This document shows, one piece after another, positions 1,008-18,506 of a stretch of 19,488 bases of DNA. The stretch is from a virus. Its lineage: Duplodnaviria > Heunggongvirae > Uroviricota > Caudoviricetes. Position 1 is the first letter of the stretch. Every line of letters starts with the position of its first letter. The DNA lies in the IMG/VR virus record IMGVR_UViG_3300036876_000145, positions 1-19,488 of that record; one strand, written 5' to 3'. A model generated the notes under the pieces. The model did no database searches. It saw only the letters and a list, made by a program, of their open reading frames with translations, and was not told the origin of the DNA. The translations under genes and the position numbers were made by a program.

Positions 1008-2924
1008 ATGGTAAGTAAATTTGAGTTATCGCCGTATTCTACATTCATTCATAAATCCCGTTACGCCCGCTGGTTAGAAGAAAAAACTCGAAGAGAAAAT
1101 TGGGATGAAACCGTAAATCGATATATTACTTATTTCGCTCATCGTATTCCGAAATCCGATCGTGAAGCAACATCCGCTGAAATTGAGAAAGCTATTTTTC
1201 ATATGGATGTCATGCCATCAATGCGAGCGATGATGACCGCAGGTCCCGCTCTGGACAAAGACAATGCTGCGGGTTTCAATTGTAGCTATTTAGCTGTAGA
1301 TGATCCTCGTGCTTTTGATGAAGCAATGTACCTCAGTATGTGCGGTACAGGTGTAGGATTTTCTGTTGAACGTCAGTATGTAAATCAACTTCCTATTATT
1401 GCTGAAAATTTCTATCCAGTAGATACCTGTATTAAAGTGCGTGATTCTAAAATTGGCTGGTCGAATGCGTTCCGACAATTGCTTAGTCTACTTTATTCAG
1501 GCTCTATTCCCACATGGGATATGAGTGCTGTTCGCCCAGCAGGATCACTTTTAAAAACCATGGGGGGTAGGTCCAGTGGTCCCGAACCCTTAGATCGTCT
1601 TTTCAAATTCTCCGTTAATCTCTTCCAAAAAGCCGCGGGGCGTAAACTAAATTCTATTGAATGTCACGATTTGATGTGTATGGTCGCAGATATTGTAGTT
1701 GTTGGAGGGGTGCGACGTAGCGCTATGTTGTCTCTTTCCAATCTCTCAGATGAGCGTATGCGTAACGCCAAAAACGGTCAATGGTGGGATGAGAAAAACC
1801 CTCAAGGGGCTCCCTGGCGTAGACTAGCAAACAATTCTGTAGCATACACAGAAAAACCAGAACCAGAAATTTTTATTCGAGAGTTTCTTACTTTGATAGA
1901 ATCAAAATCTGGAGAGCGGGGAATTTTTAATCGAGTATCCGCCGTCAATAGCGCAAAGAAAACAGGTCGCCGGAAATGGGAAGGTATAAATTTTGGTTCA
2001 AATCCCTGTGGTGAAATAAATTTACGCCCTAACCAATTTTGTAACCTATCCGAAGTAGTTATAAGACCTCACGATACTAAAGCTACCATTAAACGTAAAG
2101 TTCGCATCGCTGTAATCATCGGCTGCTTACAATCTACTTTAACTGATTTCCGATATCTTCGCAAAGAGTGGCAAAAAAATACTGAAGAAGAGCGTTTATT
2201 AGGGGTGAGTCTCACAGGAATTATGGACAATGTGATGATGTCCACTAATGGCGCGGATCTAGCAAAACTATTAGATGAACTTCGTGAATACACAATCGAG
2301 GTCGCTACAGAGTGGGCTGGGAAGCTGGGTATAAACGTCCCTACGGCGATTACTTGCATCAAACCATCTGGAACAGTCTCCCAACTCGTAAACTGCTCCC
2401 CAGGCATCCATAGCCGTTACTCGCGTTGGATTAAACGAGGTACGCAAGAAGATGCTAAGAGTCCAGTAAACACTTTTTTGAAATCTATAGGTTGGTTGTA
2501 TGAACCTGAATTGAACAAACCACAAGACTCTGATCTTTTCTTTTTCGCCTTAGAATCCCCAGATATTAGTATATGTAGGAATGATCGTAATGCTATCGAA
2601 CAATTAGAAATTTACAAAACTTACAAACTTCATTGGACTGAACATAATCCTAGCTGCACTGTGTATGTAAGAGAATCTGAATGGACGGATGTATTGGCGT
2701 GGATTTACAAACATTTCGATATTATTGGTGGGGTTAGTTTTTTACCCTACGATAACGGAATTTACCGTCAGGCCCCATTCACTGAAATTACCGAAGCTGA
2801 GTATGTGAAATTGAAAGAAAAAGAACCGGTAATCGACTGGTCGAAATTACCAGATTTTGAAAAAGAAGACATGACTACAGCTTCCCATGAAATGGCCTGC
2901 TCCGCTGGCGGATGCGAAGCCTAG
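1008..2924 (+). CDS. nrdJ: Class II (adenosylcobalamin-dependent) ribonucleotide reductase, monomeric type
   Basis: Motifs FNCSY, GGVRRSA, NPCGEI (thiyl-radical Cys), QFCNLSEV, TCIKPSGTVSQL and C-terminal CSAGGCE redox pair. 638 aa with no sign of an intein. Confidence 0.95.
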   Translation: MVSKFELSPYSTFIHKSRYARWLEEKTRRENWDETVNRYITYFAHRIPKSDREATSAEIEKAIFHMDVMPSMRAMMTAGPALDKDNAAGFNCSYLAVDDPRAFDEAMYLSMCGTGVGFSVERQYVNQLPIIAENFYPVDTCIKVRDSKIGWSNAFRQLLSLLYSGSIPTWDMSAVRPAGSLLKTMGGRSSGPEPLDRLFKFSVNLFQKAAGRKLNSIECHDLMCMVADIVVVGGVRRSAMLSLSNLSDERMRNAKNGQWWDEKNPQGAPWRRLANNSVAYTEKPEPEIFIREFLTLIESKSGERGIFNRVSAVNSAKKTGRRKWEGINFGSNPCGEINLRPNQFCNLSEVVIRPHDTKATIKRKVRIAVIIGCLQSTLTDFRYLRKEWQKNTEEERLLGVSLTGIMDNVMMSTNGADLAKLLDELREYTIEVATEWAGKLGINVPTAITCIKPSGTVSQLVNCSPGIHSRYSRWIKRGTQEDAKSPVNTFLKSIGWLYEPELNKPQDSDLFFFALESPDISICRNDRNAIEQLEIYKTYKLHWTEHNPSCTVYVRESEWTDVLAWIYKHFDIIGGVSFLPYDNGIYRQAPFTEITEAEYVKLKEKEPVIDWSKLPDFEKEDMTTASHEMACSAGGCEA

Positions 2925-2952
2925 AAATTTCCAAAAATGAGTATTGTACAGT

Positions 2953-3231
2953 ATGGAAATACATCTAGAATTTAAAATTACTCTCGCTAGCGGGGAAATC
3001 GTTACTCAAGATATTCAACTCCCCGCTGATCCAAATTACCCCATCGACAAACAAATGAAAGCTCTCATGCAAACCATGATAAACCAATATTCTACCGTGG
3101 GTATGCTACGAGAAGTTGAACCTGGGGTTTACAGGTTGCTTTGCCATAGCCAAATATATTGGGTAGAATGTTCTTTACCGAAGATTGTTTTGGCAAATGC
3201 TACGGAAGTACCGCAGGTGACTCTTGAATGA
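2953..3231 (+). CDS. Hypothetical protein (about 92 aa)
   Basis: The ORF track starts at TTG 2944; ATG 2953 is the more likely start. Fills the gap after nrdJ with phage-like codon use. Confidence 0.7.
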   Translation: MEIHLEFKITLASGEIVTQDIQLPADPNYPIDKQMKALMQTMINQYSTVGMLREVEPGVYRLLCHSQIYWVECSLPKIVLANATEVPQVTLE

Positions 3232-3403
3232 TTTCCTTTGGATTGAATGGAAGATAGTGATTTTATTGATAGCTTTTTTCTGGTTGTTTATGGCGATTCA
3301 TGAACAAAAAGCTTTATCAAAACCTATAGCTGTTCAAAATCCTTGGTGCGATGCCTCTCCAGTTGATGGGGCAGGAAAACCAGAAATTTGTGATCACCAA
3401 TGA
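3224..3403 (+). CDS. Small single-pass membrane protein (59 aa; not in the ORF track)
   Basis: TTG 3224 preceded by AGGTGA. Translation MNDFLWIEWKIVILLIAFFWLFMAIHEQKALSKPIAVQNPWCDASPVDGAGKPEICDHQ* has one hydrophobic helix and a Cys pair. Confidence 0.55.
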   Translation: MNDFLWIEWKIVILLIAFFWLFMAIHEQKALSKPIAVQNPWCDASPVDGAGKPEICDHQ

Positions 3404-3763
3404 ACGATTATCAAAGATTTTGCATACACAGGTGTAAAATGCTGTTCCTTATGTCACGAAACGGGGTATGATATATCAGGACTGGAAGTTTGTATAGTTG
3501 ACGGACAGCCAGTTTTATTGTGTTGTACATTACATGTATTTTTTTATCCGCTAAAAGAAGATGGGTCGAAAATTACCCCCGAAGAAAAACTTCTTCGGGC
3601 AATTTTTGGAGAACGACCTCACCTTCAAGCAAAATATAGACTACTGACCTTTTTCAGTAGGGGGACTTTATGGATGAGATTGTTACTCCCGAAGCACAAA
3701 TCGAAACGCTTCTTCAAATTCTCGCCGCTATATTGGATAAACAAGGTGGGGAGATTGTTTTAA
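3404..3763 (+). CDS. Cys-rich small protein carrying an RNA polymerase beta flap-tip-helix motif (start codon uncertain)
   Basis: The track ORF 3518-3763 extends upstream without a stop to 3404: TIIKDFAYTGVKCCSLCHETGYDISGLEVCIVDGQPVLLCCTLHVFFYPLKEDGSKITPEEKLLRAIFGERP... The motif TPEEKLLRAIFGE (3575-3613) matches RpoB. The 3' end overlaps the next gene by 94 nt. Confidence 0.6.
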   Translation, partial: TIIKDFAYTGVKCCSLCHETGYDISGLEVCIVDGQPVLLCCTLHVFFYPLKEDGSKITPEEKLLRAIFGERPHLQAKYRLLTFFSRGTLWMRLLLPKHKSKRFFKFSPLYWINKVGRLF

Positions 3764-3906
3764 GCCGTAAAGACTTTGAAATGTACGAAGGTGCCCCTGT
3801 TGTTGTCCGACGCTTGTCCGGTGATTATGTCTTAATTCGCATCGCTTACGAAGATGAAGTTGCGGAAACGGATGAGTTGGATATTCCAGAAACTCCTCAA
3901 ACCTAA
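3670..3906 (+). CDS. Small acidic hypothetical protein (78 aa)
   Basis: GGGGGA SD upstream of ATG; D/E-rich C-terminus. Confidence 0.75.
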   Translation: MDEIVTPEAQIETLLQILAAILDKQGGEIVLSRKDFEMYEGAPVVVRRLSGDYVLIRIAYEDEVAETDELDIPETPQT

Positions 3907-3929
3907 CAAAACAAAGAAGAAATCAAATT

Positions 3930-3959
3930 TAGCCATTTTCAGTGTTTCCGATGTATACT
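3930..3959 (+). promoter_or_regulatory. Promoter upstream of the Fic gene (TAGCCA-18-TATACT; includes copy 2 of the TTTTC-N7-CCGAW-GTATA motif)
   Basis: TATACT at 3954-3959; TAGCCA at 3930-3935; shared motif at 3936-3957. Confidence 0.4.
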
Positions 3960-3997
3960 AGGAATATGAACGGAATTCACAGGGAGTGAGGATTTAA

Positions 3998-4492
3998 ATG
4001 AACGTAATTGAGTACTGCACAGAGGAAGTGCGTAGACAAGGGCATGATATTACTCTGCTTGACGGCATTCAGAGAGTTGGTTGGATGTTAGACGGTTGGA
4101 CTTACGCTCTTGTTAACGTTTCCGATCGCATGCCTGATCTAGGTGATGCAATCAGTTTGGGTATGCTTGTGGAAGTTAAGAAGAATGTTAACGGACTGCG
4201 TAACTGTGACATCCGAGTAGGTGATTGTATATGCCCAAGACCAGATGAACTTCGTCGGCTGCTTAACAGGCTGTTCGATCTCCGTGATAGTATGACACCA
4301 ATCGAGTTTTACAAAGAGTTTGAGATGATTCATCCGTTTGTTGACGGTAATGGGCGAACGGGTAAGATTCTGTTCAACTGGTTAAATAGGACGTTATTTG
4401 ATCCAATCTTTCCGCCGAACGACTTGTTTGGTTATGTTGTAGCTAAACTGCCAGACGGACAGCGCGTTGCTGCCGAATTACCGACCGCATAA
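3998..4492 (+). CDS. Fic/Doc-family protein (minimal Fido domain, 164 aa)
   Basis: HPFVDGNGRTGK matches HxFx(D/E)GNGRxxR with the last R replaced by K. GAGG SD upstream. Confidence 0.9.
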   Translation: MNVIEYCTEEVRRQGHDITLLDGIQRVGWMLDGWTYALVNVSDRMPDLGDAISLGMLVEVKKNVNGLRNCDIRVGDCICPRPDELRRLLNRLFDLRDSMTPIEFYKEFEMIHPFVDGNGRTGKILFNWLNRTLFDPIFPPNDLFGYVVAKLPDGQRVAAELPTA

Positions 4493-4506
4493 ATGAGGAG
4501 ATTCCC

Positions 4507-4758
4507 ATGCTTGGAGATGCGACTTATTCCGAAAGAGAAATAAAGCTGTTCGCCCATTTCAAAATGGCGGACATTGCCTACAACATCCAACCGCCCCTAC
4601 TTTATACGATGCTGGCGTATAGAGCGTTCTTGACGAACGATCAGACCGAGTATGCCTCCGCGTTGCGGCGGTGCCTTGAGGCTCTTGAAAGCTTTGAAAA
4701 AGACAAGGTTTATCGCTGCACCCCTGAGTGGGATGCGCTTATTGGAGACTGCGAATAA
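4507..4758 (+). CDS. Hypothetical helical protein (83 aa)
   Basis: Strong GAGGAG SD; the stop overlaps the next start (TAATG). Confidence 0.7.
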   Translation: MLGDATYSEREIKLFAHFKMADIAYNIQPPLLYTMLAYRAFLTNDQTEYASALRRCLEALESFEKDKVYRCTPEWDALIGDCE

Positions 4759-5270: not shown

Positions 5271-5930
5271 ATGGCAGTAGCGGGAGCAGCAAAGGCGAAG
5301 AAGGTGTGTGAGGTGTTTGACACACCATATATCATTACCCTAGTTCAACAAGCAAAAGCTGGAGATGAAGCGGCTTTTTCAACTCTATATCACAAATTTT
5401 ATCGGTATTTGAGTAATACTATAAGGCGCGTTCTTCCCGGGCAACAACCGGATACAGCGGACTGGCTCGCCAACAAAGCCATGACCCAAGCCTGGTTAAA
5501 TCTCAAAAATTTCAATGAGAAATCCACATTTCAAACCTGGATTACACGCATTGCCATCAACGAATGGAAGATGTATATTCGTGAAGAAACATCCGTAGGT
5601 CGTCAACGAGACAAAGAACTTTCTCTAAATGAAATTTTGGATGAAAATCCTAGCGACGGTAAATTTGGACAACGGGACATTAATTTAGCTGGTATCGCTG
5701 ATCGACAAATGCTTGATTTGTCGCTTAAAGGTATCCCTAGTGTTTACCGTGATATTGTGTATTTAAAATTGTGGATGGGATTTTCCGTGAAGGAAATTGA
5801 AAATATCTTGGGAGTGAAAAGACCCAAAAAAGTCGGAATGAATATCGTTAAGGGTCGTAAGATGTTGCTGGAACAGGTAAAAAAGAATTCTACAAATAGT
5901 CCTTTACAAACAAGGATGACCGGGGTATAA
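5271..5930 (+). CDS. ECF-type (sigma-70 family, group 4) RNA polymerase sigma factor
   Basis: Region 2: LVQQAKAGDEAAFSTLY and STFQTWITRIAINEW. Region 4: IPSVYRDIVYLKLWMGFSVKEIENILG. 219 aa. Confidence 0.88.
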   Translation: MAVAGAAKAKKVCEVFDTPYIITLVQQAKAGDEAAFSTLYHKFYRYLSNTIRRVLPGQQPDTADWLANKAMTQAWLNLKNFNEKSTFQTWITRIAINEWKMYIREETSVGRQRDKELSLNEILDENPSDGKFGQRDINLAGIADRQMLDLSLKGIPSVYRDIVYLKLWMGFSVKEIENILGVKRPKKVGMNIVKGRKMLLEQVKKNSTNSPLQTRMTGV

Positions 5931-6057: not shown

Positions 6058-6705
6058 ATGAGAATAAGTAAGGTAACAATTTTTGCGTTAATTTTGAGTT
6101 TGCTTTCGTTTGTTTCCGCGGCATCTGCCGATCCCATCACTCTGACGAATCTATTCGGCACCATAAATATTAGCGATATCGGCGTAGGTGGAATGGGTAC
6201 GACTGGTTCAACTACCATTACATCTCACGGTTCGGAGCTAACAAACTTTGAAGGAATAACCGCTCCGCATGGGCATTCGCTTGGTTATGTAGGGTTTTCT
6301 ACCGGCGTGCTAGAAAGCGGAAGCGTGCTAAACGGTGGGGTATTTTCCAGTACCGGGTCCACTTTCGATGTTATCGGTAAGGGTAAATTTGGACAACCTA
6401 AGGGAAATATTTTTATCGGCAGCTTTGTAGGTCCTATTGACTGGACATTCATCTCCCAAAATAAACAGGAGCGAACCTACACTTTAACAGGTGAGTTGTC
6501 TGGAACACTCTGGAATGGGCGTTTTACAACTGGGTACACTACCCAAACCATCAATATACTCAACAAGAATCAATTGAATGGCGGTGTGGGGCACATTGGG
6601 CTTGGTTCTACGAGTATTTCCGCCCCTGAACCAGGGACTTTAGGTCTGTTGGGAACAGGACTCGTAGGGATCGCTGGAATGTTTCGCCGGAAGTATTTTT
6701 CTTAA
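6058..6705 (+). CDS. PEP-CTERM sorting-domain surface protein (exosortase substrate)
   Basis: N-terminal signal peptide ending ASA-DPI; G/T/S-rich beta-type body; C-terminal APEPGTLGLLGTGLVGIAGMFRRK (PEP + transmembrane helix + basic tail). GGGGG SD. Confidence 0.9.
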   Translation: MRISKVTIFALILSLLSFVSAASADPITLTNLFGTINISDIGVGGMGTTGSTTITSHGSELTNFEGITAPHGHSLGYVGFSTGVLESGSVLNGGVFSSTGSTFDVIGKGKFGQPKGNIFIGSFVGPIDWTFISQNKQERTYTLTGELSGTLWNGRFTTGYTTQTINILNKNQLNGGVGHIGLGSTSISAPEPGTLGLLGTGLVGIAGMFRRKYFS

Positions 6706-7770: not shown

Positions 7771-8406
7771 ATGGGAAAATGGTTTGATGTTCTTCCAATG
7801 ACTCAAGTTGACCATAGACTTTTTGTGGGGGGCACCGCTCCAGCTGCCGAACTCGCAAAGCAAAATCCAGCCAAAATATCCGCTGTTCTTTGTGTTCACC
7901 AAACAATGGATTATGAAAAAAACTCCAATATAATTTACATGCATGTACCGTTTGAAGATGGGGAACCTATTCCACCGCGCCAATTTATCAACGCTTTAGG
8001 CTGGCTCAAGTTTATGTATGAAAATGGGCATGTTATTTTGATCCATTGTGCCGCTGGTATCAGTAGGTCAGTGACTATACTCGCTGCTTTTATGCACTAT
8101 GAGGGAATATCCGATTTCAATACCGCGCTTGATTCAATTCGCATGAATCGACCTAGCATTGGTCCATCTCCAGCAGTTTTGGTGTCCGCAAAGAAGTTGT
8201 TGGGGGTATTTCCATACGATGGCAGTCTGCTTAAGACCCCAGGGCATGAAGTCATTGAACGGGTGCAAAATCAACGAACAGCATACGCACATCCAGACCC
8301 TAATTGCCCCATGCGCGTATTTTTGCTTTCTCAGCAAGAAAACAACACCCCAAGGCACGAAATCGACTGTACTTGCGCACTAAGCGGTGTGACTAGTTTG
8401 AAGTAG
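7771..8406 (+). CDS. Dual-specificity protein phosphatase (PTP superfamily) with a Cys/His-rich C-terminal extension
   Basis: P-loop IHCAAGISRS (CX5R); N-terminal LFVGG; acid loop PFEDG; C-terminal MNRPSIGPS. Confidence 0.88.
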   Translation: MGKWFDVLPMTQVDHRLFVGGTAPAAELAKQNPAKISAVLCVHQTMDYEKNSNIIYMHVPFEDGEPIPPRQFINALGWLKFMYENGHVILIHCAAGISRSVTILAAFMHYEGISDFNTALDSIRMNRPSIGPSPAVLVSAKKLLGVFPYDGSLLKTPGHEVIERVQNQRTAYAHPDPNCPMRVFLLSQQENNTPRHEIDCTCALSGVTSLK

Positions 8407-8873: not shown

Positions 8874-9206
8874 ATGGCTGTTACACTTACACCAAAAGCT
8901 GTTACGAAAGTGAAAGAGATTATTGCTGGTTTGGATGACCCTAAACCTGTAGCTTTGCGCCTTAGTGTGATCGGGGGTGGCTGCTCTGGATTTCAATATT
9001 CCATGCAGTTCGAAAACGAAAAAGGCATGATGGATAAAGAATACGATTTTGATGGATTGAAACTTCTTGTGGATGGAACATCCGCAATGTACTTGGATGG
9101 TTGTGAAGTGGATTATTTGGAGACACTGGAGAGCAGTGGGTTCAAATTCAACAATCCCAGTGTGAGTCGAACCTGTGGTTGTGGTAGTTCTTTCGATGTA
9201 AAATAG
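8874..9206 (+). CDS. iscA: A-type Fe-S carrier (IscA/HesB/ErpA family)
   Basis: LRLSVIGGGCSGFQY; YLDGCEVDY; GFKFNNP; TCGCGSSF, with all three conserved Cys. Confidence 0.95.
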   Translation: MAVTLTPKAVTKVKEIIAGLDDPKPVALRLSVIGGGCSGFQYSMQFENEKGMMDKEYDFDGLKLLVDGTSAMYLDGCEVDYLETLESSGFKFNNPSVSRTCGCGSSFDVK

Positions 9207-9220
9207 TCGAAGGGGTAAAA

Positions 9221-9601
9221 ATGTACAGTGAAAAAGTAATTGATCATTATCTGCATCCCAGGAATGTCGGCTCCATGGACAAAGCTAGCTCCGATGTGGG
9301 CACTGGTTTGGTCGGCGCACCCGAATGTGGCGACGTGATGAAGTTACAAATTAAAGTGAACAAAGAAACCAATGTCATCGAAGATGCAAAATTTAAGACC
9401 TTTGGCTGTGGTAGCGCTATCGCTTCATCATCTCTGGCTACAGAGTGGGTGAAAGGTCGTACGATTGATGAAGCCCTCAGTATTCAGAATATGGAGATTG
9501 TAAAAGAGCTGGCTTTACCTCCAGTAAAAATCCATTGCTCAGTGCTTGCGGAAGATGCAATTCGAGCAGCGGTTGCTGATTGGAAAAAGAAACAAGTATG
9601 A
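9221..9601 (+). CDS. iscU: Fe-S cluster scaffold IscU
   Basis: HPRNVG; GAPECGDVMKLQI; KTFGCGSAIASSS; LPPVKIHCSVLAEDAI (LPPVK HscA-binding motif, three Cys and His). Confidence 0.97.
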   Translation: MYSEKVIDHYLHPRNVGSMDKASSDVGTGLVGAPECGDVMKLQIKVNKETNVIEDAKFKTFGCGSAIASSSLATEWVKGRTIDEALSIQNMEIVKELALPPVKIHCSVLAEDAIRAAVADWKKKQV

Positions 9602-10427: not shown

Positions 10428-11315
10428 ATGAGTAAAGAGAAACAGATGCACAGCCTTATTAATATGGACTGTCGAGAGGGTCTCAAATCTTTGCCCGACG
10501 AAAGTGCTCATGTTGTTCTTACAGACCCCCCGTATGGGCTAGATGGTATGGGAGAAAACTGGTCTTCAGAAAAACTATTTGCGAGGGAAAAAACCGCCAG
10601 TGCTAAAACCGCTTCGACTGGCGGGTTGCCCCCCGTGCAGAAGTTTGATCGAAAACAAATGGATGACCTGTATTCTTTTTTGCTGCCTGTTTGGAAAGAA
10701 GCATATCGCATCCTATACCCCGGCGGGTTCTTACTTTCTTTTGGTAGTCCGCGGTTAATTGGTGCAATTTCATGGGCGGCACATGTGGCTGGTTTTGAGT
10801 TGCGAGACGAAGCCATCTGGGAGCACGAGGGCGGACAACCGAAAGCCCAACGCCATACTCGCTGGGTGCAGCAAATGAAGATTTCTAGTGCAGAGAAAAG
10901 AAGGATAGTAGCTCTACTAGACGACCGAACTACTGTGCAGCTGCGTCCGAAATACGAACCATTTATTGTGGCGCAAAAACCGGCTAACGGTACGCAGGTA
11001 CAAAATTTTGTTAAATATGGCGTCGGGCTGATTAAGTCTTATGATCTCGACGGTAAGTATCGAACACCGATTTTTCAACATCCCAAACCGCGAACGCGGG
11101 GAGAATTTGACCACATGACTATCAAACCACTGGAACTGATCGAGGATATTCTTGGTGTGTTTGCAGGACCACACTCAGTTGTTGTGGACCCCTTCACCGG
11201 AAGTGGCACAACGGGAGTAGCCGCACTGCACTTAGGTCATAGTTTTATAGGTTTTGAAAAAGACTCGCAACACTGCGCTACAGCGTTGCAACGGTTGAAA
11301 GAAGCATATGAATAG
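10428..11315 (+). CDS. Beta-class N4/N6 DNA methyltransferase
   Basis: Motif IV TDPPY near the N-terminus; HMTIKPLEL; motif I VVDPFTGSGTTG near the C-terminus. GGAGG SD. Confidence 0.93.
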   Translation: MSKEKQMHSLINMDCREGLKSLPDESAHVVLTDPPYGLDGMGENWSSEKLFAREKTASAKTASTGGLPPVQKFDRKQMDDLYSFLLPVWKEAYRILYPGGFLLSFGSPRLIGAISWAAHVAGFELRDEAIWEHEGGQPKAQRHTRWVQQMKISSAEKRRIVALLDDRTTVQLRPKYEPFIVAQKPANGTQVQNFVKYGVGLIKSYDLDGKYRTPIFQHPKPRTRGEFDHMTIKPLELIEDILGVFAGPHSVVVDPFTGSGTTGVAALHLGHSFIGFEKDSQHCATALQRLKEAYE

Positions 11316-12021
11316 TCTTTCACACGATGAGGTTGTAAAACGTTGCACCGACTCTCGGTTGCGAGGAGCATCTCATGATGCCCAGACTATGGGAGTAGCC
11401 GCGTTTGTGAAATTACCCGACCCTCTGCTTAAAAAGAACGACAGAATAGAAAATTGGCGACTCATACAGATTCAAGTAGCTGTCGCAATTGCGTGTAAAA
11501 ATCAACCCGTGAGCATAGCGGATTACACACACATCGCCAAAACATACAAACCCCAATCGCGCCAGCAGCAACCTTGGCATATGGCTGAAAGAGGGCTTCC
11601 TGTATACAAGGGCGGCGATACCCTCCCAAACGCCTTAGGCGTTGTGCCCGATGATTGCTATGTTTTTTATGTAGATAATAACGGGGTTATGGGAGCACCC
11701 AATTCTTACGACAGACGAAAGACCAGAAGCCGCCGCCCGGACCCAAATTTCACCTTAGATGGTGGTTGCCAAACTTGCGAAAATCCAAAAGCCACAGATC
11801 AAGGGCATCGAGATTACCGCAAGTCTCTGACCAATGAAAATAGTATTCGTCAGTGCCGTTCATGCAACCGCCCCGATAAAAATAATGTGATTTGGGGAGA
11901 AGGCAGCCGTCCGAGAGCCATTGGTTATTCCGCCAAAGGATTACAGCGGGTCGTTAAAAACTCTGACATTTCTGTCGAAAAGCGTGATAGAATACTTGAG
12001 ATTCTCAAGGATATCGCATGA
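11308..12021 (+). CDS. Putative HNH (beta-beta-alpha-Me) endonuclease, possibly a restriction enzyme (237 aa)
   Basis: C154-x2-C157, D-Q-G-H167, N178, C183-x2-C186-N187, K191. Overlaps both flanking MTase genes. Confidence 0.65.
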   Translation: MNSLSHDEVVKRCTDSRLRGASHDAQTMGVAAFVKLPDPLLKKNDRIENWRLIQIQVAVAIACKNQPVSIADYTHIAKTYKPQSRQQQPWHMAERGLPVYKGGDTLPNALGVVPDDCYVFYVDNNGVMGAPNSYDRRKTRSRRPDPNFTLDGGCQTCENPKATDQGHRDYRKSLTNENSIRQCRSCNRPDKNNVIWGEGSRPRAIGYSAKGLQRVVKNSDISVEKRDRILEILKDIA

Positions 12022-12956
12022 TTTACGGCAGCGTGTGCAGCGGTATTGAGGCTGCAACCGTGGCGTGGGAGCCGCTCGGCTGGAAGCCTGCGTGGTTTTC
12101 CGAAATCGAACCCTTTCCGAATTCAGTATTAGAACAGCACTACCCAAAAATTCCAAACTTGGGAGACATGACAAAAATACATGAAACCAAAACTTTCCAA
12201 GAAAATAAAATCGACCTGCTCGTCGGGGGCACCCCGTGCCAATCCTTCTCTCAAGCAGGCCTACGACGAGCCTTTGATGATCCTCGGGGAGACCTTGCCC
12301 TCAAATTTATCCGAATTATCAGCCTTGCTAAACCTGAATGGTTCTTGTGGGAAAATGTCACCGGAGTTCTATCCAGTGACGGCGGTAAGTCATTCCAAGA
12401 GTTTATCTATCAAATTCAAAAACTCGGGTATGGGTTCGCCTACCGGGTGTTTGACGCTCAATACTTTGGAGTACCCCAGAAACGCCGTCGAGTCTACCTT
12501 GTCGGACATCGCGGAGACTGGCGCACTGCCGCTCAAATATTATTTGAGTCGAAGAGCTTGCAAGGGGATATTGCGTCGAATGAAAACACGCAACAAAATC
12601 GTCCCGCAACTAGAGGCCGCGCTCAAGAAGGCAATCGGGTAATGGGGGCGGATGTCTACAACTATGCAATTACGGGAGACATTGCAGCGACTTTTGGGGC
12701 AAACTCAGGCGGCACGAATACCCATGGACCGAAATTCATCGACGAAAATGGTATCCGCAAACTTACACCCGTAGAGTGTGAACGCCTGATGGGGTTTCCC
12801 GACAACTACACCCGTGTCCCGCATAAAGGTAAAGTCAGTTCGGAGTGTCTTGACTCCTGGCGATATCATGCTTTGGGAAATAGCATGGTCATTCCAGCAA
12901 TGCGCTGGATTGGCGAGCGGATAAAACTTGTGGGTGAAAGTATGCAGGCACTTTAA
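12018..12956 (+). CDS. C5 cytosine DNA methyltransferase (alpha chain)
   Basis: Motif I SVCSGIEA; IV GGTPCQSFS; VI WENV; VIII QKRRRVY; IX RKLTPVECERLMGFP; X LGNSM. Confidence 0.95.
   Translation: MIYGSVCSGIEAATVAWEPLGWKPAWFSEIEPFPNSVLEQHYPKIPNLGDMTKIHETKTFQENKIDLLVGGTPCQSFSQAGLRRAFDDPRGDLALKFIRIISLAKPEWFLWENVTGVLSSDGGKSFQEFIYQIQKLGYGFAYRVFDAQYFGVPQKRRRVYLVGHRGDWRTAAQILFESKSLQGDIASNENTQQNRPATRGRAQEGNRVMGADVYNYAITGDIAATFGANSGGTNTHGPKFIDENGIRKLTPVECERLMGFPDNYTRVPHKGKVSSECLDSWRYHALGNSMVIPAMRWIGERIKLVGESMQAL
12181..12642 (+). CDS. Overlapping +1-frame protein resembling the beta subunit of two-chain C5 MTases
   Basis: 153 codons open entirely inside the MTase gene. The C-terminal half CLTLNTLEYPRNAVESTLSDIAETGALPLKYYLSRRACKGILRR resembles the SLSDILE...YYLS...CxGILRR peptide I recall from alternative-frame MTase subunits. 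Start uncertain (12181 or 12355). Confidence 0.65.
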   Translation: MKPKLSKKIKSTCSSGAPRANPSLKQAYDEPLMILGETLPSNLSELSALLNLNGSCGKMSPEFYPVTAVSHSKSLSIKFKNSGMGSPTGCLTLNTLEYPRNAVESTLSDIAETGALPLKYYLSRRACKGILRRMKTRNKIVPQLEAALKKAIG

Positions 12957-12977
12957 GGCCTAAAAATTTTTAAGTCA

Positions 12978-13017
12978 CTACTTCCGTCGTTAAGGGGTTC
13001 AGAACCCCCGTAAGTAG
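12978..13017. other. Nested inverted repeat after the MTase operon (GGGGTTC-A-GAACCCC inside CTACTT...AAGTAG)
   Basis: GGGGTTC at 12994-13000 and GAACCCC at 13002-13008; outer arms at 12978-12983 and 13012-13017. No U-tract. Confidence 0.6.
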
Positions 13018-13056
13018 AGCGCTACGAATGATTTACAAAGGAGGGTAGGGTCTGTA

Positions 13057-13086
13057 TTGACAAAAATTAAAAACTATGAGTATCAT
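13057..13086 (+). promoter_or_regulatory. Sigma70-type promoter TTGACA-18-TATCAT
   Basis: TTGACA at 13057-13062, AT-rich spacer, TATCAT at 13081-13086; upstream of 13159. Confidence 0.65.
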
Positions 13087-13158
13087 ATAACAGTAGTACA
13101 AATCTAGCAGAATTTCAAAAATGGGTCTTTATTCTGCGGGCCGTTTAAAAGGAGCAGT

Positions 13159-13986
13159 ATGTATAATAATCAATTCGCTGCCTGTGTCAAAGTAGGCGGT
13201 AAAGTTCTTCGTGAAACCTCTGGTACAGTAAGTATCCCCTTCGGCGCTGAGTATAGCGTCCAACTCAAAAACCTTAAATCTGTTCGTATGCTGGTTAAAG
13301 TGTCTGTAGACGGTACTGATGCCACTGACGGTACTTGGTTGATCGTTAACCCCAATAGCAGCATAGAACTGGAGCGCTACATTCGCAACGGCAACTGGGA
13401 TAAAGGAAATCGCTTCAAATTTATTGAGCGCACCGCAGAGATTGAACAATTTCGAGGCATTAAAGCCGATGATGGTTTGATCCGCATTGAGTACAAAGCC
13501 GAAATTGTTCCAGAACAAAGCGGGTTTGATAGGTTTTATGATGACTGGAATATTCCAGATATTCCAGATATTCCTAAATGTCCAAATCTTCCTAAAAGGC
13601 CATGGCGTAACATTCCTAAAAAACCATACCCATACTGGAAGGATCTTTATAAATCCAGTGGGACGATAATGCGTAGGGCTAAAATCACCGGACAAAGCAT
13701 GAGTTTTGATTCACAAGATGTTCCAATAAGTGGACAAACCTTGAATGACACAGGAATCACTGTGCCTGGTAGCGAAAGCTCTCAAAAATTTGTTGCGGGT
13801 GAATATTTTCCAACCGAATCCCAAAGCAATGTGATCGTTATCAAGCTAAGAGGGGATGTTAAAGGAAAAAAAGTAGTTAAACCCATTACCGTAGAGCATA
13901 AACCTCAGTGTTCTACTTGCGGTAAAACTGGAAAACCTCAAGATAAGTTCTGTGCAAATTGCGGAACATCCTTGGTATTGATATAA
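13159..13986 (+). CDS. Phage hypothetical protein: beta-rich N-terminal domain, Pro-rich linker, C-terminal double zinc ribbon (275 aa)
   Basis: AAGGAG SD; CSTCG...FCANCG at the C-terminus; IPDIPDIPKCPNLPKRP linker. Confidence 0.85.
   Translation: MYNNQFAACVKVGGKVLRETSGTVSIPFGAEYSVQLKNLKSVRMLVKVSVDGTDATDGTWLIVNPNSSIELERYIRNGNWDKGNRFKFIERTAEIEQFRGIKADDGLIRIEYKAEIVPEQSGFDRFYDDWNIPDIPDIPKCPNLPKRPWRNIPKKPYPYWKDLYKSSGTIMRRAKITGQSMSFDSQDVPISGQTLNDTGITVPGSESSQKFVAGEYFPTESQSNVIVIKLRGDVKGKKVVKPITVEHKPQCSTCGKTGKPQDKFCANCGTSLVLI
13550..13574 (+). repeat. 9-bp coding tandem repeat ATATTCCAG (about 2.8 copies) encoding IPD
   Basis: Copies at 13550-13558 and 13559-13567, partial at 13568-13574. Confidence 0.8.
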
Positions 13987-14047
13987 TAACACTTGGAAAA
14001 TCTCGATGTAGGTCTGGGAGTAAGTATTAAATAGGACACGGTAATGC

Positions 14048-14560
14048 GTGTCCTATTTTATGCCAGAAAAAAGAAAATATGTTGTTGGATTTTTATTTGA
14101 CCCCACTCTATCCCTCGTTGTTTTGATTCGAAAATTACGCCCCGGTTTTCAGGCCGGTTTATTAAATGGCGTAGGTGGAAAAGTAGAACTAGGAGAAACT
14201 GGTTACCAAGCTATAAACAGAGAATTTTTTGAAGAAGCGGGTATTCCAGACCTACCCTGGAAACATTATCTCACCTTAAACACCCCCAATTCCCATCTAG
14301 AATTTTTCAGCGCTATCGGCAATGTTCACAATGTTACAACTATACTTGATGAAGAAGTGACCGTCTATGAAGTTCTAGATGTAATGGATCGTTGTGATAC
14401 CATGCCAAATATTCGTTGGTGTATCCAGATGGCGAGAAGTTTATATTTTGGTGAACGAGCATCGGGGTTTGAAGTAACAGAAAACGCTCTTTCTGATCAA
14501 CATCACGATCACGATCAAATGTCTTTTGATTTTGAAGCAAATGCAGTTGTGAAACCATGA
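14048..14560 (+). CDS. NUDIX hydrolase
   Basis: Nudix box GGKVELGETGYQAINREFFEEAG. Start is GTG 14048 or ATG 14060. Confidence 0.88.
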   Translation: MSYFMPEKRKYVVGFLFDPTLSLVVLIRKLRPGFQAGLLNGVGGKVELGETGYQAINREFFEEAGIPDLPWKHYLTLNTPNSHLEFFSAIGNVHNVTTILDEEVTVYEVLDVMDRCDTMPNIRWCIQMARSLYFGERASGFEVTENALSDQHHDHDQMSFDFEANAVVKP

Positions 14561-15579
14561 AAGTAGAATCCAAACTTATTCTTACAAGTAAAAACCTACA
14601 CACAGGTGTAAATTTATACACTTTTGTTCTTGTGTATCCTCGTTGCATTTTAGCCGAAGTTAACACGCACCGCATGCTGAGTCGCAATACAGCATCATCT
14701 CGCGCTATACCCGCTCGTAAGCAACGGGAACGAGTGTTAACGGACCCCTTTGTGCCCCTTACCATCGGTCAAAATAAAAAAGGAATGCAAGCAGGTGAAG
14801 AACTAGCTGGCTGGAGAAAATTTGTAGCCCTTCAAACCTGGAAGTTCGCTCGTTATCCAATGGTGGGGGCGTCATGGATACTGGATAAAGTAGGAGCCCA
14901 TAAACAAGTTGTGAATCGGATTGTAGAACCATGGACATTCACTCAACAAGTAGTAACTTGTACCGATCTGAAGAACGTTTTCAAGCTGCGCAACCATCCC
15001 GATGCTGAGCCTCATTTTCATGAATTAGCTCGCCAAATGCAGGAACAAGTAGAGTATGTGAATCGTCTTTTTAAAATTCATGATCTTAACGCTAGGTGTA
15101 GAGGGGGTTATGAGAATGCCCCAGCATATCTAAACTCAGGGGTAAAGACCGGAAAATTGCAAGTATTACGCGCTACAGGTAACGAAATAGGGGATATGGA
15201 TTGGCATCTCCCATTCATTGATAACGAGGATGTTTATAAAGCGGTTTGTATTGAGCGAGAGGATAGAATAGCAGAAGAAAATCAAAGACATGGGCATATC
15301 CACAATCTCAAGCCAGTTCGAGGATTATATCTCATGGAAATCCTTAAGAAAATAAGTACCGCTAGATGCGCTAGAGTTAGTTATTTTCTACCTGAAAGCG
15401 GAGAAAGATCAGATATAAATCGTGATATTGAGTTGTGCGATCGTCTTAGCACCTCTGCACATTGGTCCCCCTTTGAACATATTGCTACGCCAATGGTATT
15501 AGATGAGTACAGTGGTAATTTTCGATCATGGAAACAATATCGAAAAGAATTTGAAGTAGAGGCAGGAGGGGATAGATAA
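14557..15579 (+). CDS. thyX: Flavin-dependent thymidylate synthase (phage type)
   Basis: ILAEVNTHRMLSRNTASSRAIP (variant of the ThyX RHRx7S motif); ARCARVSY; HWSPFEH. ATGA overlap with NUDIX. Confidence 0.85.
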   Translation: MKVESKLILTSKNLHTGVNLYTFVLVYPRCILAEVNTHRMLSRNTASSRAIPARKQRERVLTDPFVPLTIGQNKKGMQAGEELAGWRKFVALQTWKFARYPMVGASWILDKVGAHKQVVNRIVEPWTFTQQVVTCTDLKNVFKLRNHPDAEPHFHELARQMQEQVEYVNRLFKIHDLNARCRGGYENAPAYLNSGVKTGKLQVLRATGNEIGDMDWHLPFIDNEDVYKAVCIEREDRIAEENQRHGHIHNLKPVRGLYLMEILKKISTARCARVSYFLPESGERSDINRDIELCDRLSTSAHWSPFEHIATPMVLDEYSGNFRSWKQYRKEFEVEAGGDR

Positions 15580-16073
15580 TGGAACCCAATGTAGATAATA
15601 AGTGGAATACTGATGATGAAGCGTTAAAAGACAACCAGAAAAAATGGGATTTGAGATTTCTAGAGATGGCGAAACTAGTATCAACATGGAGTAAAGATAC
15701 TAGCACAAAATGTGGGGCCGTAATTGTAAGAGAAAATAAATCAGTAGCATCCGTTGGATTTAACGGATTCCCACAAAAAATGTCTGACGCGGATGAACTG
15801 TACAACAATCGAGAAGTGAAATATTCTAGGGTCATCCATGGTGAAGTAAACGCTCTACTTTTTGCTAATGAGCTGGTACAAGGTTGCACTTTATACACCA
15901 CCGGCCCTTGTTGTGATAGGTGCGCTGTGCAGATGATACAGGCCGGTATAACCAGATTTGTTGCTTATACAGCCCCGGAAATGGAACAACGATGGGGAGA
16001 AGCTTTTAAACGCACATTTAGCTACTATGAAGAGGCTGGGGTAGACCATAAAGAATATTCTGTGGTAGAATAG
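15579..16073 (+). CDS. dCMP deaminase
   Basis: WSKDTSTKCGAVI; GFNGFP; IHGEVNAL (HxE); PCCDRC Zn site; IQAGI. TAATG coupling with thyX. Confidence 0.92.
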   Translation: MEPNVDNKWNTDDEALKDNQKKWDLRFLEMAKLVSTWSKDTSTKCGAVIVRENKSVASVGFNGFPQKMSDADELYNNREVKYSRVIHGEVNALLFANELVQGCTLYTTGPCCDRCAVQMIQAGITRFVAYTAPEMEQRWGEAFKRTFSYYEEAGVDHKEYSVVE

Positions 16074-16086
16074 TTTATTGAGGATT

Positions 16087-17007
16087 ATGCCAACTAAACA
16101 AAGACCGTACAGAGTTGATTACTTCGACAAGCACGAGAGTCACATATACCCACCCAATATTAAATGGAACCAAGTTGATCATGATGCCAAGGCAGCGGTA
16201 CTTGTTCATTCGGTAATCGTGTGGACCGGAACGGCTAAAGACGCGAAACTTCTTCTTAGTGTGCCTGGTCGTTTTATTATTAGGGCTTATCGTTTTTACA
16301 AAAAACTCTCAAAGAGAAAAGTATGGAAGCCTTATACCCCAGCGTTAGCTAAGATCAAAGAATGTGGTTCATTTGCAGAGAAGTTCGACGAACTGTTCGC
16401 CTCCGACAGCGCATCTGCTGCACCTTTAACTGTTCGAGGTTTGGGATACGGAGATCAGGTAGAGATGAAATTATCTACCTTAGCGGATTGTCCAACTTGT
16501 CAAAGCACTGATAAAGATGTGCATCGTTGCACAGATGCTAGTTGCCTAGCAAGCCGAGAAGGAATATCAACTCATGAATTCACAGCTTGTACAGATTCTT
16601 GGCATGTCACTAACCCAGAAGCGCCTAAGCTGAATGACCCGGTAGAGGCGGAACGAGATATTGAAGCTGCAACTCATTATTGCCCGGTATGTGGTAGCAC
16701 CAGAAAAGAAGAACGCGGAGATATTCATTTTGTAAATGACGCCGGTAAATCTGAAATTGAATCATGCAAAAACCCTTGGCACGATAATGTATTTGATTGG
16801 ACAGATATATCTAAGTCTAAAATAGAAGATCTGTCTGACCCTCTGGAAAAGCAGGCATCGGATCAACCTCCCTGTAATCAACCAAGTTTCCAACTCGCAG
16901 ATGAAGGACAACAGCCCCGTGATCTCGGTCAAGTATTGGCTTGGGCTGCCATATTTAGTGGAGCTATAGTTATAGCCGCCACATTGATATACACCGCCAC
17001 TCGTTGA
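16087..17007 (+). CDS. Membrane-anchored hypothetical protein with two CPxC...CxxxWH Zn-like repeats (306 aa)
   Basis: GAGGA SD favours ATG 16087. CPTCQS...CTDSWH and CPVCGS...CKNPWH; C-terminal hydrophobic helix VLAWAAIFSGAIVIAATLIY. Confidence 0.75.
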   Translation: MPTKQRPYRVDYFDKHESHIYPPNIKWNQVDHDAKAAVLVHSVIVWTGTAKDAKLLLSVPGRFIIRAYRFYKKLSKRKVWKPYTPALAKIKECGSFAEKFDELFASDSASAAPLTVRGLGYGDQVEMKLSTLADCPTCQSTDKDVHRCTDASCLASREGISTHEFTACTDSWHVTNPEAPKLNDPVEAERDIEAATHYCPVCGSTRKEERGDIHFVNDAGKSEIESCKNPWHDNVFDWTDISKSKIEDLSDPLEKQASDQPPCNQPSFQLADEGQQPRDLGQVLAWAAIFSGAIVIAATLIYTATR

Positions 17008-17008
17008 T

Positions 17009-18131
17009 AAGCGAATACCTTATTAGGCGGTATTAGACACTATGCTACAAGTCCAACTCAAACTTCGACCTTGTAAGGCGCAAGAACAAATCTACGACCA
17101 GTGGCTCTATAATTTGGCTTCGGTTTACAACTTTGCCGTCCGCAAGATCGAGCTAAACGCCAAGGACAAAATCTACTTCTCCAAGAACGATTTTCAAAAC
17201 TTGTTGGCGAACCACGGAGAGAAGTTGGGTATACCGAGCCACACAATTCAGGGCGTGCTCTGCACCGTCCACGATGCGTGGAAGCGTTGCTTTAAGAAGA
17301 CCGCAGGCAAACCAAAACTCAAAGGGATGCGTAACAAGATGTCCAGCATCCCGTTCCCCGATCCCATCAAGGCACCAAAAGGCAACCGCATTACGCTTCC
17401 GGGTTTGGGCAGTGTCCGCTTTCACAAGCAGGAAATATCAGAGGGAAAGATCAAGTGTGGACGATTGATCAAGCGTGCGTCTGGATGGTATCTGTGTCTA
17501 TTCATAGACGCAGAGCCGAATCCGATTAAGCGTTTGGCGTTTGGGGCGATAGGCATTGATCCCGGATTTTCAAACCTGCTCACAACTTCGGATGGAGAGG
17601 TCATCGAACACCCACGGGAGTTAGAAGCGGCAGCAGAGCGTCTTGGACAAGCACAGCGTGGTCACAACAAACAGTTGGCAGCGAGGATTCAGGAGCGCAT
17701 CGCCAACCGCAAGAAAGATAGGAACCACAAGCTAACAACGAAGCTGGTATCTGAGAACGTGCTCATAGTTTGGAGCAAAGATGCAATCAAGGGAATCGCA
17801 AAACGATTCGGGAAGAGCGTGAGCAGTTCATCTCACGCACAAATTCGACAGATGTTGTCCTACAAGATGCCCAAAAGCGGTGGGACGTTTATCGAAGTTG
17901 CTTCCAAGTATTCCACCAAGACCTGTAACGAATGTGGTAATCCGACAGGACCCACAGGACTTGCAGAATTGTCGGTAAGGCAATGGCGATGTTCTGCTTG
18001 TGGAGCAGAGTACGACCGCGATGTCAATGCGGCTCGTAACACGCTATTCGCCGGGGCAGGATGTGCCCACGAGGAGTTGGCTTATGTCTAACTCGGACAG
18101 GAATCCCCAGAGTTTACTCTGGGAGCATCAA
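17009..18131 (+). mobile_element. Non-autonomous IS200/IS605-family (IS1341-type, tnpB-only) element
   Basis: Left: TTGAT at 17004-17008, then hairpin AATACC...GGTATT at 17014-17034. Right: GAAT (18101-18104), hairpin CCCAGAG-TTTA-CTCTGGG (18106-18123), terminal TCAA (18128-18131). No tnpA. The left boundary is inferred. Confidence 0.8.
17042..18091 (+). CDS. tnpB: TnpB RNA-guided endonuclease family protein (RuvC-II Glu apparently replaced)
   Basis: RuvC-I GIDPG (D173); Zn finger CNEC...CSAC; RuvC-III DRDVNAARN (D327); IVWSKD at the usual IxxEDL position. 349 aa. Confidence 0.93.
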   Translation: MLQVQLKLRPCKAQEQIYDQWLYNLASVYNFAVRKIELNAKDKIYFSKNDFQNLLANHGEKLGIPSHTIQGVLCTVHDAWKRCFKKTAGKPKLKGMRNKMSSIPFPDPIKAPKGNRITLPGLGSVRFHKQEISEGKIKCGRLIKRASGWYLCLFIDAEPNPIKRLAFGAIGIDPGFSNLLTTSDGEVIEHPRELEAAAERLGQAQRGHNKQLAARIQERIANRKKDRNHKLTTKLVSENVLIVWSKDAIKGIAKRFGKSVSSSSHAQIRQMLSYKMPKSGGTFIEVASKYSTKTCNECGNPTGPTGLAELSVRQWRCSACGAEYDRDVNAARNTLFAGAGCAHEELAYV

Positions 18132-18150
18132 TACCAACAATTAGCGTCCC
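17950..18150 (+). ncRNA. Predicted TnpB omegaRNA (right-end RNA) with guide from the flank; 5' boundary approximate
   Basis: Established IS200/IS605 architecture: scaffold overlaps the 3' end of tnpB and the right-end hairpin, and the guide is the flank after TCAA (TACCAACAATTAGCGT..., from 18132). Not directly visible as a gene. Confidence 0.5.
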
Positions 18151-18506
18151 GCACTGAAAGTACAGATTTTTCAACCATAGCTAAGCGTCTTTCTAATGAA
18201 AGAACGATTCGTCTTCTTCACGGTTCTTTAGGCATTCAAACTGAAGGTGGAGAAATAGCCGACGCTTTAAAGAAGCATATATTTTACGGCACCCCCCTTG
18301 ACATAGTAAATATTGCAGAAGAGGTCGGTGACTGCCTGTGGTATTTGGCTATATTCAGCAATGAAATCGGTATTGATTTTCCAACCATCATGGAAAACAA
18401 TATTGCTAAACTGAAAGCACGATATGGGGAAAAATTCTCCGAAGATCGGGCAGTGAATCGAGACTTGAAAACTGAGCGAAAAATCCTTGAAAATATAAAA
18501 ATATAA
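18084..18506 (+). CDS. MazG-like all-alpha nucleotide pyrophosphohydrolase; first 16 codons come from the IS right end
   Basis: YQQLASRT; LGIQTEGGEIADALKKHIFYG; EEVGDCLWYLA; NIAKLKARY. GAGGAG SD at 18071-18076 before ATG 18084. Confidence 0.85.
   Translation: MSNSDRNPQSLLWEHQYQQLASRTESTDFSTIAKRLSNERTIRLLHGSLGIQTEGGEIADALKKHIFYGTPLDIVNIAEEVGDCLWYLAIFSNEIGIDFPTIMENNIAKLKARYGEKFSEDRAVNRDLKTERKILENIKI

Follow-up and report, generated by a model that had tools for sequence, protein, structure and literature searches.

Small Cys-rich phage proteins carry a conserved copy of the RNA polymerase β flap-tip helix, a candidate mimic directed at sigma region 4

Phage factors that redirect the host RNA polymerase, such as AsiA, gp33, Q, Gp2 and P7, have been key tools for understanding transcription, and all such factors known to us bind polymerase or sigma through surfaces of their own. 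T4 AsiA binds region 4 of sigma-70, stops its docking on the flap of the polymerase β subunit (RpoB) and remodels region 4; it is all-helical and bears no resemblance to the flap tip. WhiB-like (Wbl) proteins engage region 4 jointly with the flap tip, on another surface and by means of an aromatic patch near a [4Fe-4S] cluster. Zinc-binding anti-sigma (ZAS) proteins carry the motif H-x3-C-x2-C, and a helical domain of theirs encloses sigma regions 2 and 4. The β flap-tip helix (FTH) has several partners: sigma region 4, the N-terminal domain of NusA (NusA-NTD), Q proteins, gp33, P7 and gp39. Here we analyze a 19,488-nucleotide (nt) stretch of phage DNA (the window), in which a small Cys-rich reading frame contains an exact copy of this helix, together with the protein family to which that frame belongs, family A. 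A flap-tip mimic under protein-level selection is well supported by the data, and on a broader basis than first proposed; its target and effect we infer.

The copy lies in frame 2 of the + strand:

3575–3613, + strand: the 13-mer TPEEKLLRAIFGE, identical to residues 896–908 of E. coli RpoB, the β FTH

Nucleotides 3569–3616 read K-I-T-P-E-E-K-L-L-R-A-I-F-G-E-R, in the context ...KEDGSKITPEEKLLRAIFGERPHLQAK.... The identity proposed in a first-pass annotation of the window is exact, both by translation and by phmmer against PDB chains, where the window residues SKITPEEKLLRAIFGER align to E. coli RpoB 893–909 and place the 13-mer at β 896–908. In the same search only residues 55–71 of the window open reading frame (ORF) align, and the rest matches no solved chain. 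The annotation was also right that the flanks are not RpoB-like; the window ORF has no Pfam hit, and its own contig contains no rpoB (no TIGR02013 match). A recent rpoB scrap was considered as the source and rejected, since diverged homologs conserve the motif with synonymous codon differences and the PDB match is limited to the motif. When SPEEKLLRAIFGE was searched in ~185,000 representative bacterial genomes, at least 120 matches were obtained; among those listed, all are in true RpoB and none in a short ORF.

Family-A proteins are 85–110 amino acids (aa) long. All carriers known so far are uncultivated phages of large or jumbo size, the longest contigs reaching 332 and 463 kb. The phage analyzed here is itself large, as CheckV rates its 102-kb record, of which the window makes up the first 19.5 kb, ~30% complete. 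Distant members were collected by two IMG/VR pattern scans and by protein searches. The proteins have, in order, a short variable N-terminus, a compact Cys6-His domain, a variable linker, an amphipathic helix and an acidic tail. The domain has the signature C-x9-CC-x2-CH ... DG ... CC ... FFYP, with ~20 residues between CH and CC, and probably binds metal. The helix has the consensus [L/I]-[S/T]-P-E-E-[K/R]-L-L-R-A-I-F-G-E and includes the hydrophobic face of the FTH (L901, L902, I905 and F906). The following parts are recognizable in the window:

3404–3634, + strand: remnant coding region of family A (Cys6-His domain plus flap-tip-helix motif), from the frame-2 stop to the ancestral stop position
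3440–3457, + strand: CC-x2-CH, a metal-ligand-like cluster, invariant in alignments A2, A3, A4 and A5
3521–3526, + strand: second invariant CC pair of the domain (alignments A2 and A5), followed by the conserved FFYP at 3539–3550

The remnant is 100% and 99% identical to the cores of two homologous proteins, P0001 and P0002, and 60% identical to that of P0003. The Cys/His cluster noted upstream of the helix at first pass is present, as CC-x2-CH at 3440–3457 and as CC-x2-H at 3521–3535.

Conservation was assessed in alignment A5, which holds 16 sequences that are 38–56% identical to P0002. Invariant are C23, C33, C34, C37, H38, C60 and C61, then F67, Y68 and P69, and within the motif E80, E81, L83, L84, A86, I87 and F88. 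Mean pairwise identity is highest in the motif (0.81), followed by the Cys domain (0.50), and is 0.14 in the linker, 0.13 in the N-terminus and 0.09 in the tail. FFYP and the motif are separated by a linker of 2 to 13 residues, and the tail that follows the motif is short, variable and mostly acidic. The motif codons differ at nearly every position among members, with Ser encoded by both AGY and TCN, and the peptide is constant. Because the codons vary freely while the peptide stays the same and the flanks diverge, selection acts on the peptide, as had been argued from the codons of the window alone. In P0004 the identity to the FTH extends to 16 residues. An AlphaFold2 (AF2) model of P0002 (mean predicted local distance difference test score, pLDDT, 77; predicted TM score 0.61) shows a small α/β domain, with motif residues 79–88 helical. 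The helix copy is conserved, helix-forming and carried on a variable linker, and it is probably exposed.

The Cys6-His domain itself appears to be new, with no known family or fold match. No Pfam family was found for it in the window ORF, P0002, P0009, P0016 or near and far relatives, and no PHROG match for the window ORF. The AF2 model gave a best E of 1.1 in a Foldseek search of the PDB and a best Z of 2.1 in a wide VIA-align search of solved chains, and the ESM Atlas returned unnamed clusters only, with Myxococcota and Uroviricota as hints.

Four groups of natural proteins come closest. T4 AsiA (and the bacterial Rsd/AlgQ type) is, like family A, small, with sigma region 4 as its target (for family A the proposed one), loss of -35-dependent initiation and redirection of the polymerase; it uses a surface of its own, whereas family A would present a copy of the polymerase docking helix on a Cys-rich domain. 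The two are unrelated in sequence, as judged by the lack of a match to the AsiA Pfam model in hmmscan searches of Pfam-A with the window ORF, P0002, P0009 and P0016. The Wbl proteins of actinobacteria and actinophages resemble family A in being small, Cys-rich and phage-encoded, and hold a metal cluster. Their Cys spacing differs from the C-x9-CC-x2-CH...CC found here; neither the window ORF nor the tested relatives match Pfam Whib, and we know of no FTH-like motif described for Wbl proteins. They are known to bind region 4 of sigma-A (bioRxiv 10.1101/2025.06.05.653497). The ZAS proteins, encoded next to extracytoplasmic function (ECF) sigma genes, are likewise small Cys/His proteins beside a sigma factor, an arrangement that one of our motif proteins, P0099, shares; the ZAS motif is absent from A5 and there is no Pfam match to zf-HC2. 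Finally, T4 gp33, the lambda and 21 Q proteins, Xp10 P7 and P23-45 gp39 operate at the same polymerase interface with the same FTH peptide as ligand. The strategies are reciprocal: those regulators bind the flap tip, and the present proteins copy it. Searches of published full text found no phage or other protein described as a flap-tip mimic, in agreement with the first-pass annotation, and met the peptide only as RpoB; subscription journals may hold prior work. Phage anti-sigma and polymerase take-over factors are a known kind; imitation as a principle would be new, and the protein family is new.

To exclude the motif from the search, we repeated it with the N-terminal domain alone (alignment A3). 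In IMG/VR this domain-only search returned five contigs, all with the motif and the same five as the motif scan. A profile of the domain alone, run against 1.84 billion representative proteins, yielded 79 hits, among which we call near clusters those short proteins that have the domain at the N-terminus. Homologs without the motif, named at first pass as a finding that would speak against mimicry, do exist: five of the 15 near clusters have none, two of these looking truncated or frameshifted. The remaining ten retain it, seven in full and three nearly so (..LLNAIFGH, ..LLRAIFPE and ..LLRAIFNE). More distant relatives are proteins of 100–250 aa that carry the domain in another architecture, mostly without the motif; a few of them have weak echoes, such as GKLLREIFGEK in P0023. 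As the motif is missing from five of 15 near clusters and from most distant relatives, the domain has a function of its own; on this pattern it is an independent module, and the FTH copy an add-on marking one phage subclade.

The distant group (P0023–P0083) has a conserved N-terminal helix, MTKAEII..KTL, and an acidic linker, with no Pfam family for the domain. P0049 is fused to a metallophosphatase, P0028 and P0072 have a C-terminal extension of ~130 aa, and P0023 lies in a mobile-element-like region with a resolvase gene.

The domain scan of the ~185,000 representative bacterial genomes found no family-A member, and so no prophage or direct host. Among cultured phages, blastn with window positions 2900–4600 and tblastn with families A, F and G gave no match, and tblastn with a 31-aa FTH peptide hit contaminating rpoB only.

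The motif is not confined to family A. The strict pattern PEE[KR..]LL[..][AS]IFGE occurs at 11 viral loci, and the looser EE[KR..]LLxAIFG at 39, compared with 5 and 5 for two permuted controls. When the proteins are clustered with the motif masked, at least 15 unrelated contexts remain once family A and three true rpoB fragments are set aside, and the motif is often terminal in them. Examples are a protein of 108 aa that ends in ...PTPEEKLLRAIFGEKEEA, one of 101 aa on a GC-rich contig, one of 145 aa that starts with MTPEERLLKAIFGEK, a family of 59-aa proteins beginning with MESREEKLLHAIFGE, small Cys-containing proteins of 60–66 aa, and large proteins on low-GC contigs of 106–253 kb that carry TAEERLL[KN]AIFGD, one of them with an HTH_3 domain. 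Positions that the patterns do not enforce are RpoB-like as well, with [ST][PA] before the motif and E/D, often with K, after it. Two matches to the loose pattern appear to be fortuitous: L028 and L048 (a terminase). Family F yielded 11 clusters, of which 10 retain the motif at the N-terminus and the eleventh (P0094) begins within it; one of the three clusters of family B lacks it. The search for the motif in small viral proteins with different flanks, suggested at first pass, was therefore positive, and much more broadly than expected. We see about an even chance that flap-tip copying is widespread and arose many times, in at least 15 unrelated families, as a terminal helix matched to host type and in some cases paired with sigma-region-4 genes, capturing sigma region 4 (or NusA). 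If so, these proteins would form an unrecognised class of transcription take-over or anti-sigma factors, defined by a short linear motif and not by a fold.

The three true rpoB fragments on viral contigs (L004, L035 and L046) show RpoB flanks (of the type KGETQL...KA.DV.D), whereas the window does not. In L004, positions 1–1041 are a true rpoB fragment that continues past the flap tip into unrelated sequence in one open frame; this junction is probably a chimeric assembly or a host-DNA junction.

Genes for sigma factors or for sigma-region-4 proteins lie near the motif genes in two settings. In the window the immediate surroundings are:

2944–3231, + strand: 95-aa gene, function unassigned, upstream of family A in 8 of 9 loci; no Pfam hit
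3670–3906, + strand: 78-aa gene, function unassigned, following family A in 9 of 9 loci; weak phrog_37448 match, no Pfam hit
5271–5930, + strand: sigma-70-family factor (regions 2 and 4), ~1.7 kb downstream; Sigma70_r2 E 3.8e-8, phrog_1740

The sigma gene reported at first pass is thereby confirmed, and its linkage recurs in several relatives: four further phage lineages have a homolog 1–2 kb downstream of their family-A gene. The shared order is ribonucleotide reductase (RNR), a ~92-aa gene, family A and a ~78-aa gene, with RNR present in six of the nine loci; the window fits this order, with a 59-aa ORF (3224–3403) between the 95-aa gene and the family-A gene. In the other setting P0099, a family-F protein with the N-terminal motif MVKEERLLNALFGNE..., is encoded 143 nt downstream of a 165-aa Sigma70_r4_2 protein (30.5 bits, Pfam cut-off 25.7) on at least 24 contigs. 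This adjacency is a link to sigma that is independent of family A.

The variants of the motif also differ in the manner of RpoB. In Myxococcota, Desulfobacterota and Bdellovibrionota, RpoB has the sequence of the family-A consensus, LSPEEKLLRAIFGE(KA), and low-GC contigs have TAEERLL.AIFG or ..LLHAIFGE (A at 897 or H at 903), like the RpoB of Staphylococcus and Enterococcus. This suggests that motif variants are matched to host type.

The copy in the window is damaged. We fetched three near-identical contigs (L006, L007 and L008) via P0001 and P0002 and aligned the DNA (alignment A1); their core is nucleotide-identical to the window apart from one substitution, and there are two further sites of difference. 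The positions concerned are:

3400–3402, + strand: ATG, the probable ancestral start, overlapping the upstream TGA as ATGA and now out of frame with the family-A frame
3412–3416, + strand: deletion site, C-AAA-G in the window, C-AAAAAAA-G in L008 and C-AAAAAACCTGTAAA-G in L006 and L007 (A1)
3635–3637, + strand: TAT replacing the stop TAA of the three near-identical contigs (A1)

The window has lost 11 nt after ...GATTATC, which removes the invariant first Cys codon of the domain signature and shifts the frame. The segment YQKTCKDF, with the Cys that is invariant in A5, is kept only in the L006/L007 form; there INDYQKTC, the homolog of the MNDYQ start in the window, is in frame with the domain. 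L008 has a separate 7-nt deletion at the same A-rich 5′ site. The frame opened by ATG 3400 (frame 1, MNDYQ...) stops after 23 codons. At the other end, the loss of the stop adds about 42 codons (from 3638, with a new stop at 3761–3763) and runs into the next gene, which starts with ATG 3670. The ~119-aa ORF described at first pass is not an intact gene: it is a stop-to-stop frame, 3404–3763, with no ATG, GTG or TTG before TTG 3518, its end is read-through, and TTG 3518, the first usual start, sits downstream of the CC-x2-CH cluster. CC-x2-CH, DG, CC and FFYP are kept. By sequence the window copy can be regarded as a family-A member by descent that is no longer intact. With the Cys codon lost, the frame out of register with the ancestral ATG and the stop gone, it is probably non-functional and may yield no functional protein.

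Initiation at ATT 3407 or ATC 3410, or a +1 slip at CAA-AGA, was considered as a way to rescue the frame; no Shine–Dalgarno sequence is present, and the invariant Cys would be missing anyway. A gene on the opposite strand was rejected, as the - strand has no ORF of at least 40 aa between 3232 and 3997. Three length alleles at one site, the loss of the stop and a Glu-to-Gly change in L006/L007 suggest recurrent inactivation of the gene in one phage population. Alternatively, the 11-nt deletion and the TAA-to-TAT change may be assembly artefacts, the comparison being one of contig sequences and not of reads. In L007, ATC stands in place of the ancestral ATG and a TnpB-type gene lies directly upstream, and the window has an IS605-type TnpB gene at 17042–18091 (OrfB_IS605 plus Cas12f1-like TNB); this phage population appears to harbour an active mobile TnpB element.

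In the mechanism that we propose, the helix would act as a short linear flap-tip mimic that fills the groove of sigma region 4 normally taken by the β flap tip. Region 4 would be uncoupled from core polymerase, or free sigma captured; -35-dependent initiation would fall, and transcription would be biased to phage promoters or to the linked phage sigma. Conceivably, the acidic tail may also cover the face of region 4 that binds DNA. The outcome would be like that of an anti-sigma or AsiA-like factor, reached through imitation. The FTH is the docking site of sigma region 4 (PMC12276001), and the peptide TPEEKLLRAIFGEK serves as "the FTH peptide" in binding studies of 21Q and Xp10 P7 (PMC6606751; PMC3985653), in labelled form in the 21Q–FTH assay (PMC6606751). 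Chimeras of sigma region 4 with the FTH (sigma4–FTH) are standard crystallisation constructs in which a short tethered FTH suffices to occupy the site (bioRxiv 10.1101/2025.06.05.653497), and they are present among solved chains (PDB 3t72, 6ido and 7kuf). Together with the 21Q assay they imply that the FTH peptide is an autonomous binding unit. In these chimeras an FTH of ~15 residues on a flexible linker fills the region 4 groove, as proposed for the phage proteins in trans; they differ in being artificial cis fusions and not natural regulators. On these grounds the motif proteins probably interfere with host transcription, and we put the probability that the motif is a flap-tip mimic that competes with the β flap for sigma region 4 at roughly 55%.

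We also co-folded intact P0002 (with A5) with residues 528–613 of E. coli sigma-70 as a stand-in for the host. The median interface score (ipSAE, interaction prediction score from aligned errors) was 0.35 (runs 0.39, 0.35 and 0.28) and that of the best of three controls 0.00; the runs agreed in at least 61% of contacts, with a partner pLDDT of at least 48. The verdict is weak support, on a calibration in which the mark was reached by 58 of 80 solved complexes and 2 of 110 mismatched pairs, and in which scores of 0.60 or below comprised only 7 of the 80 solved complexes plus both passing mismatches. The pass may come from memorised solved sigma4–FTH structures and is not counted as evidence.

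Several observations weigh against competition for host sigma region 4. The motif is absent from a third of the near clusters and from most distant Cys-domain relatives. The window gene is broken at both ends, the intact L006/L007 allele has Gly for Glu at the last motif residue, and in L007 the TnpB gene (3–467) abuts the family-A gene; the gene may be decaying or under counter-selection in this phage lineage. Family-A phages share gene order, so the sigma linkage is partly inherited and is not independent evidence, and host matching, judged by RpoB types, is suggestive at most. Any sigma with a region 4, the phage's own included, should bind the helix, and a decoy for the host factor only would need extra specificity. 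Binding to region 4 is an inference, and sequence data cannot tell which FTH partner is the target.

Among those partners, NusA-NTD is an established one (PMC5842316); NusA docks on the FTH while the polymerase is elongating. A mimic aimed at it would lessen NusA-stimulated pausing and termination and so aid antitermination in long phage operons, and the conserved residues are those of the hydrophobic face used for all FTH partners. Large phages with long co-directional gene arrays would suit such a role (every credible window gene is on the + strand), but the genomic links found lead to sigma and sigma-region-4 genes and not to nusA or antiterminators, and we regard NusA as an improbable target. 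Those same links could instead mean that the helix is aimed at the sigma that the phage itself encodes nearby or, in other elements, at the neighbouring sigma-region-4 protein. It would then serve as a cognate anti-sigma or holding factor controlling when the phage sigma is active, and not as a means of host shut-off. Linkage of family A to the sigma gene in five phage lineages fits this, as does P0099 directly downstream of the Sigma70_r4_2 protein, a classic sigma/anti-sigma arrangement. We nevertheless find it doubtful: two family-A records, one rated 100% complete at 463 kb, have no detectable homolog of the window sigma, the family-F carriers in L026, L037 and L047 are in a replication module without a sigma gene, and what the motif copies is the host polymerase, with no co-variation with the phage sigma.

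A further role, as a decoy against other flap-tip binders (Q-, gp33-, P7- or gp39-like proteins of competing phages) or against a host defence sensor, would place the proteins in inter-phage competition or counter-defence. Several phage regulators do bind the FTH peptide directly (PMC6606751; PMC3985653), and the region around P0099 has AAA_15, Fic and DndB genes that are typical of defence islands; the repeated link to sigma genes is better explained by a sigma target, and we regard this role as very unlikely. That there is no mimicry at all is largely refuted; in that case the helix would simply belong to the structure of the fold, or the segment in the window would be a recently captured, degrading rpoB fragment. 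The damage to the window copy and the weakly similar C-terminal helices of a few distant Cys-domain relatives, such as that of P0023, would fit. Against it stand the identity of 13 of 13 residues (16 in P0004), which is beyond chance, the flanks that are not RpoB-like, the age of the motif in a family with 38–56% identity, where it has been kept through synonymous change, its attachment to a linker whose length varies, and its recurrence at the N- or C-terminus in at least 15 unrelated proteins.

Should competition for sigma region 4 be borne out, imitation of a polymerase element by a natural protein would constitute a new principle. As a simple sequence signature, the motif would help to find transcription regulators among the many unannotated small phage genes, and it would supply ready-made peptide inhibitors of the sigma–core interface, which is already recognised as a target site for antibacterials. 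Its identity with the E. coli helix opens the idea to direct test.

Two unrelated elements, the window (3998–4492) and L184 (5648–6637; P0099 contigs), have a Fic/DOC gene in the neighbourhood of both a motif gene and a gene for a sigma or sigma-region-4 protein; this proximity may be coincidence or reflect a shared host take-over module. At 8874–9601 the window encodes an IscA/HesB-like protein (Fe-S_biosyn) and an IscU/NifU_N scaffold; these iron–sulfur (Fe-S) assembly proteins may matter should the ligand of the Cys6-His domain be an Fe-S cluster and not zinc. A 215-aa protein (6058–6705) ends in a PEP-CTERM sorting motif (E 4.7e-6), which, as a sequence match, points to a diderm host with an exosortase. 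Other window genes include a dual-specificity phosphatase (7771–8406) and, at 1008–2924 and 10428–18506, a dense set for nucleotide metabolism and DNA modification: RNR (with a weak match to the B12-dependent RNR insertion domain), N6/N4 and C5 DNA methyltransferases, NUDIX, ThyX, dCMP deaminase and MazG.

The codons of the motif contain a further element:

3578–3599, + strand: perfect 9-bp hairpin with loop AAAC, formed by the PEEKLLR codons; arms CCCGAAGAA and TTCTTCGGG

With an A tract upstream and a T tract downstream (region 3565–3610; RNA minimum free energy -20.5 kcal/mol, z -4.4), it resembles an intrinsic terminator of the bidirectional kind. Since GAR-GAR (EE) and CTY-CTY (LL) are complementary at a shift of one base from the reading frame, coding for the flap-tip peptide tends to produce such a hairpin; L016 has the same hairpin architecture, and weaker versions occur elsewhere.

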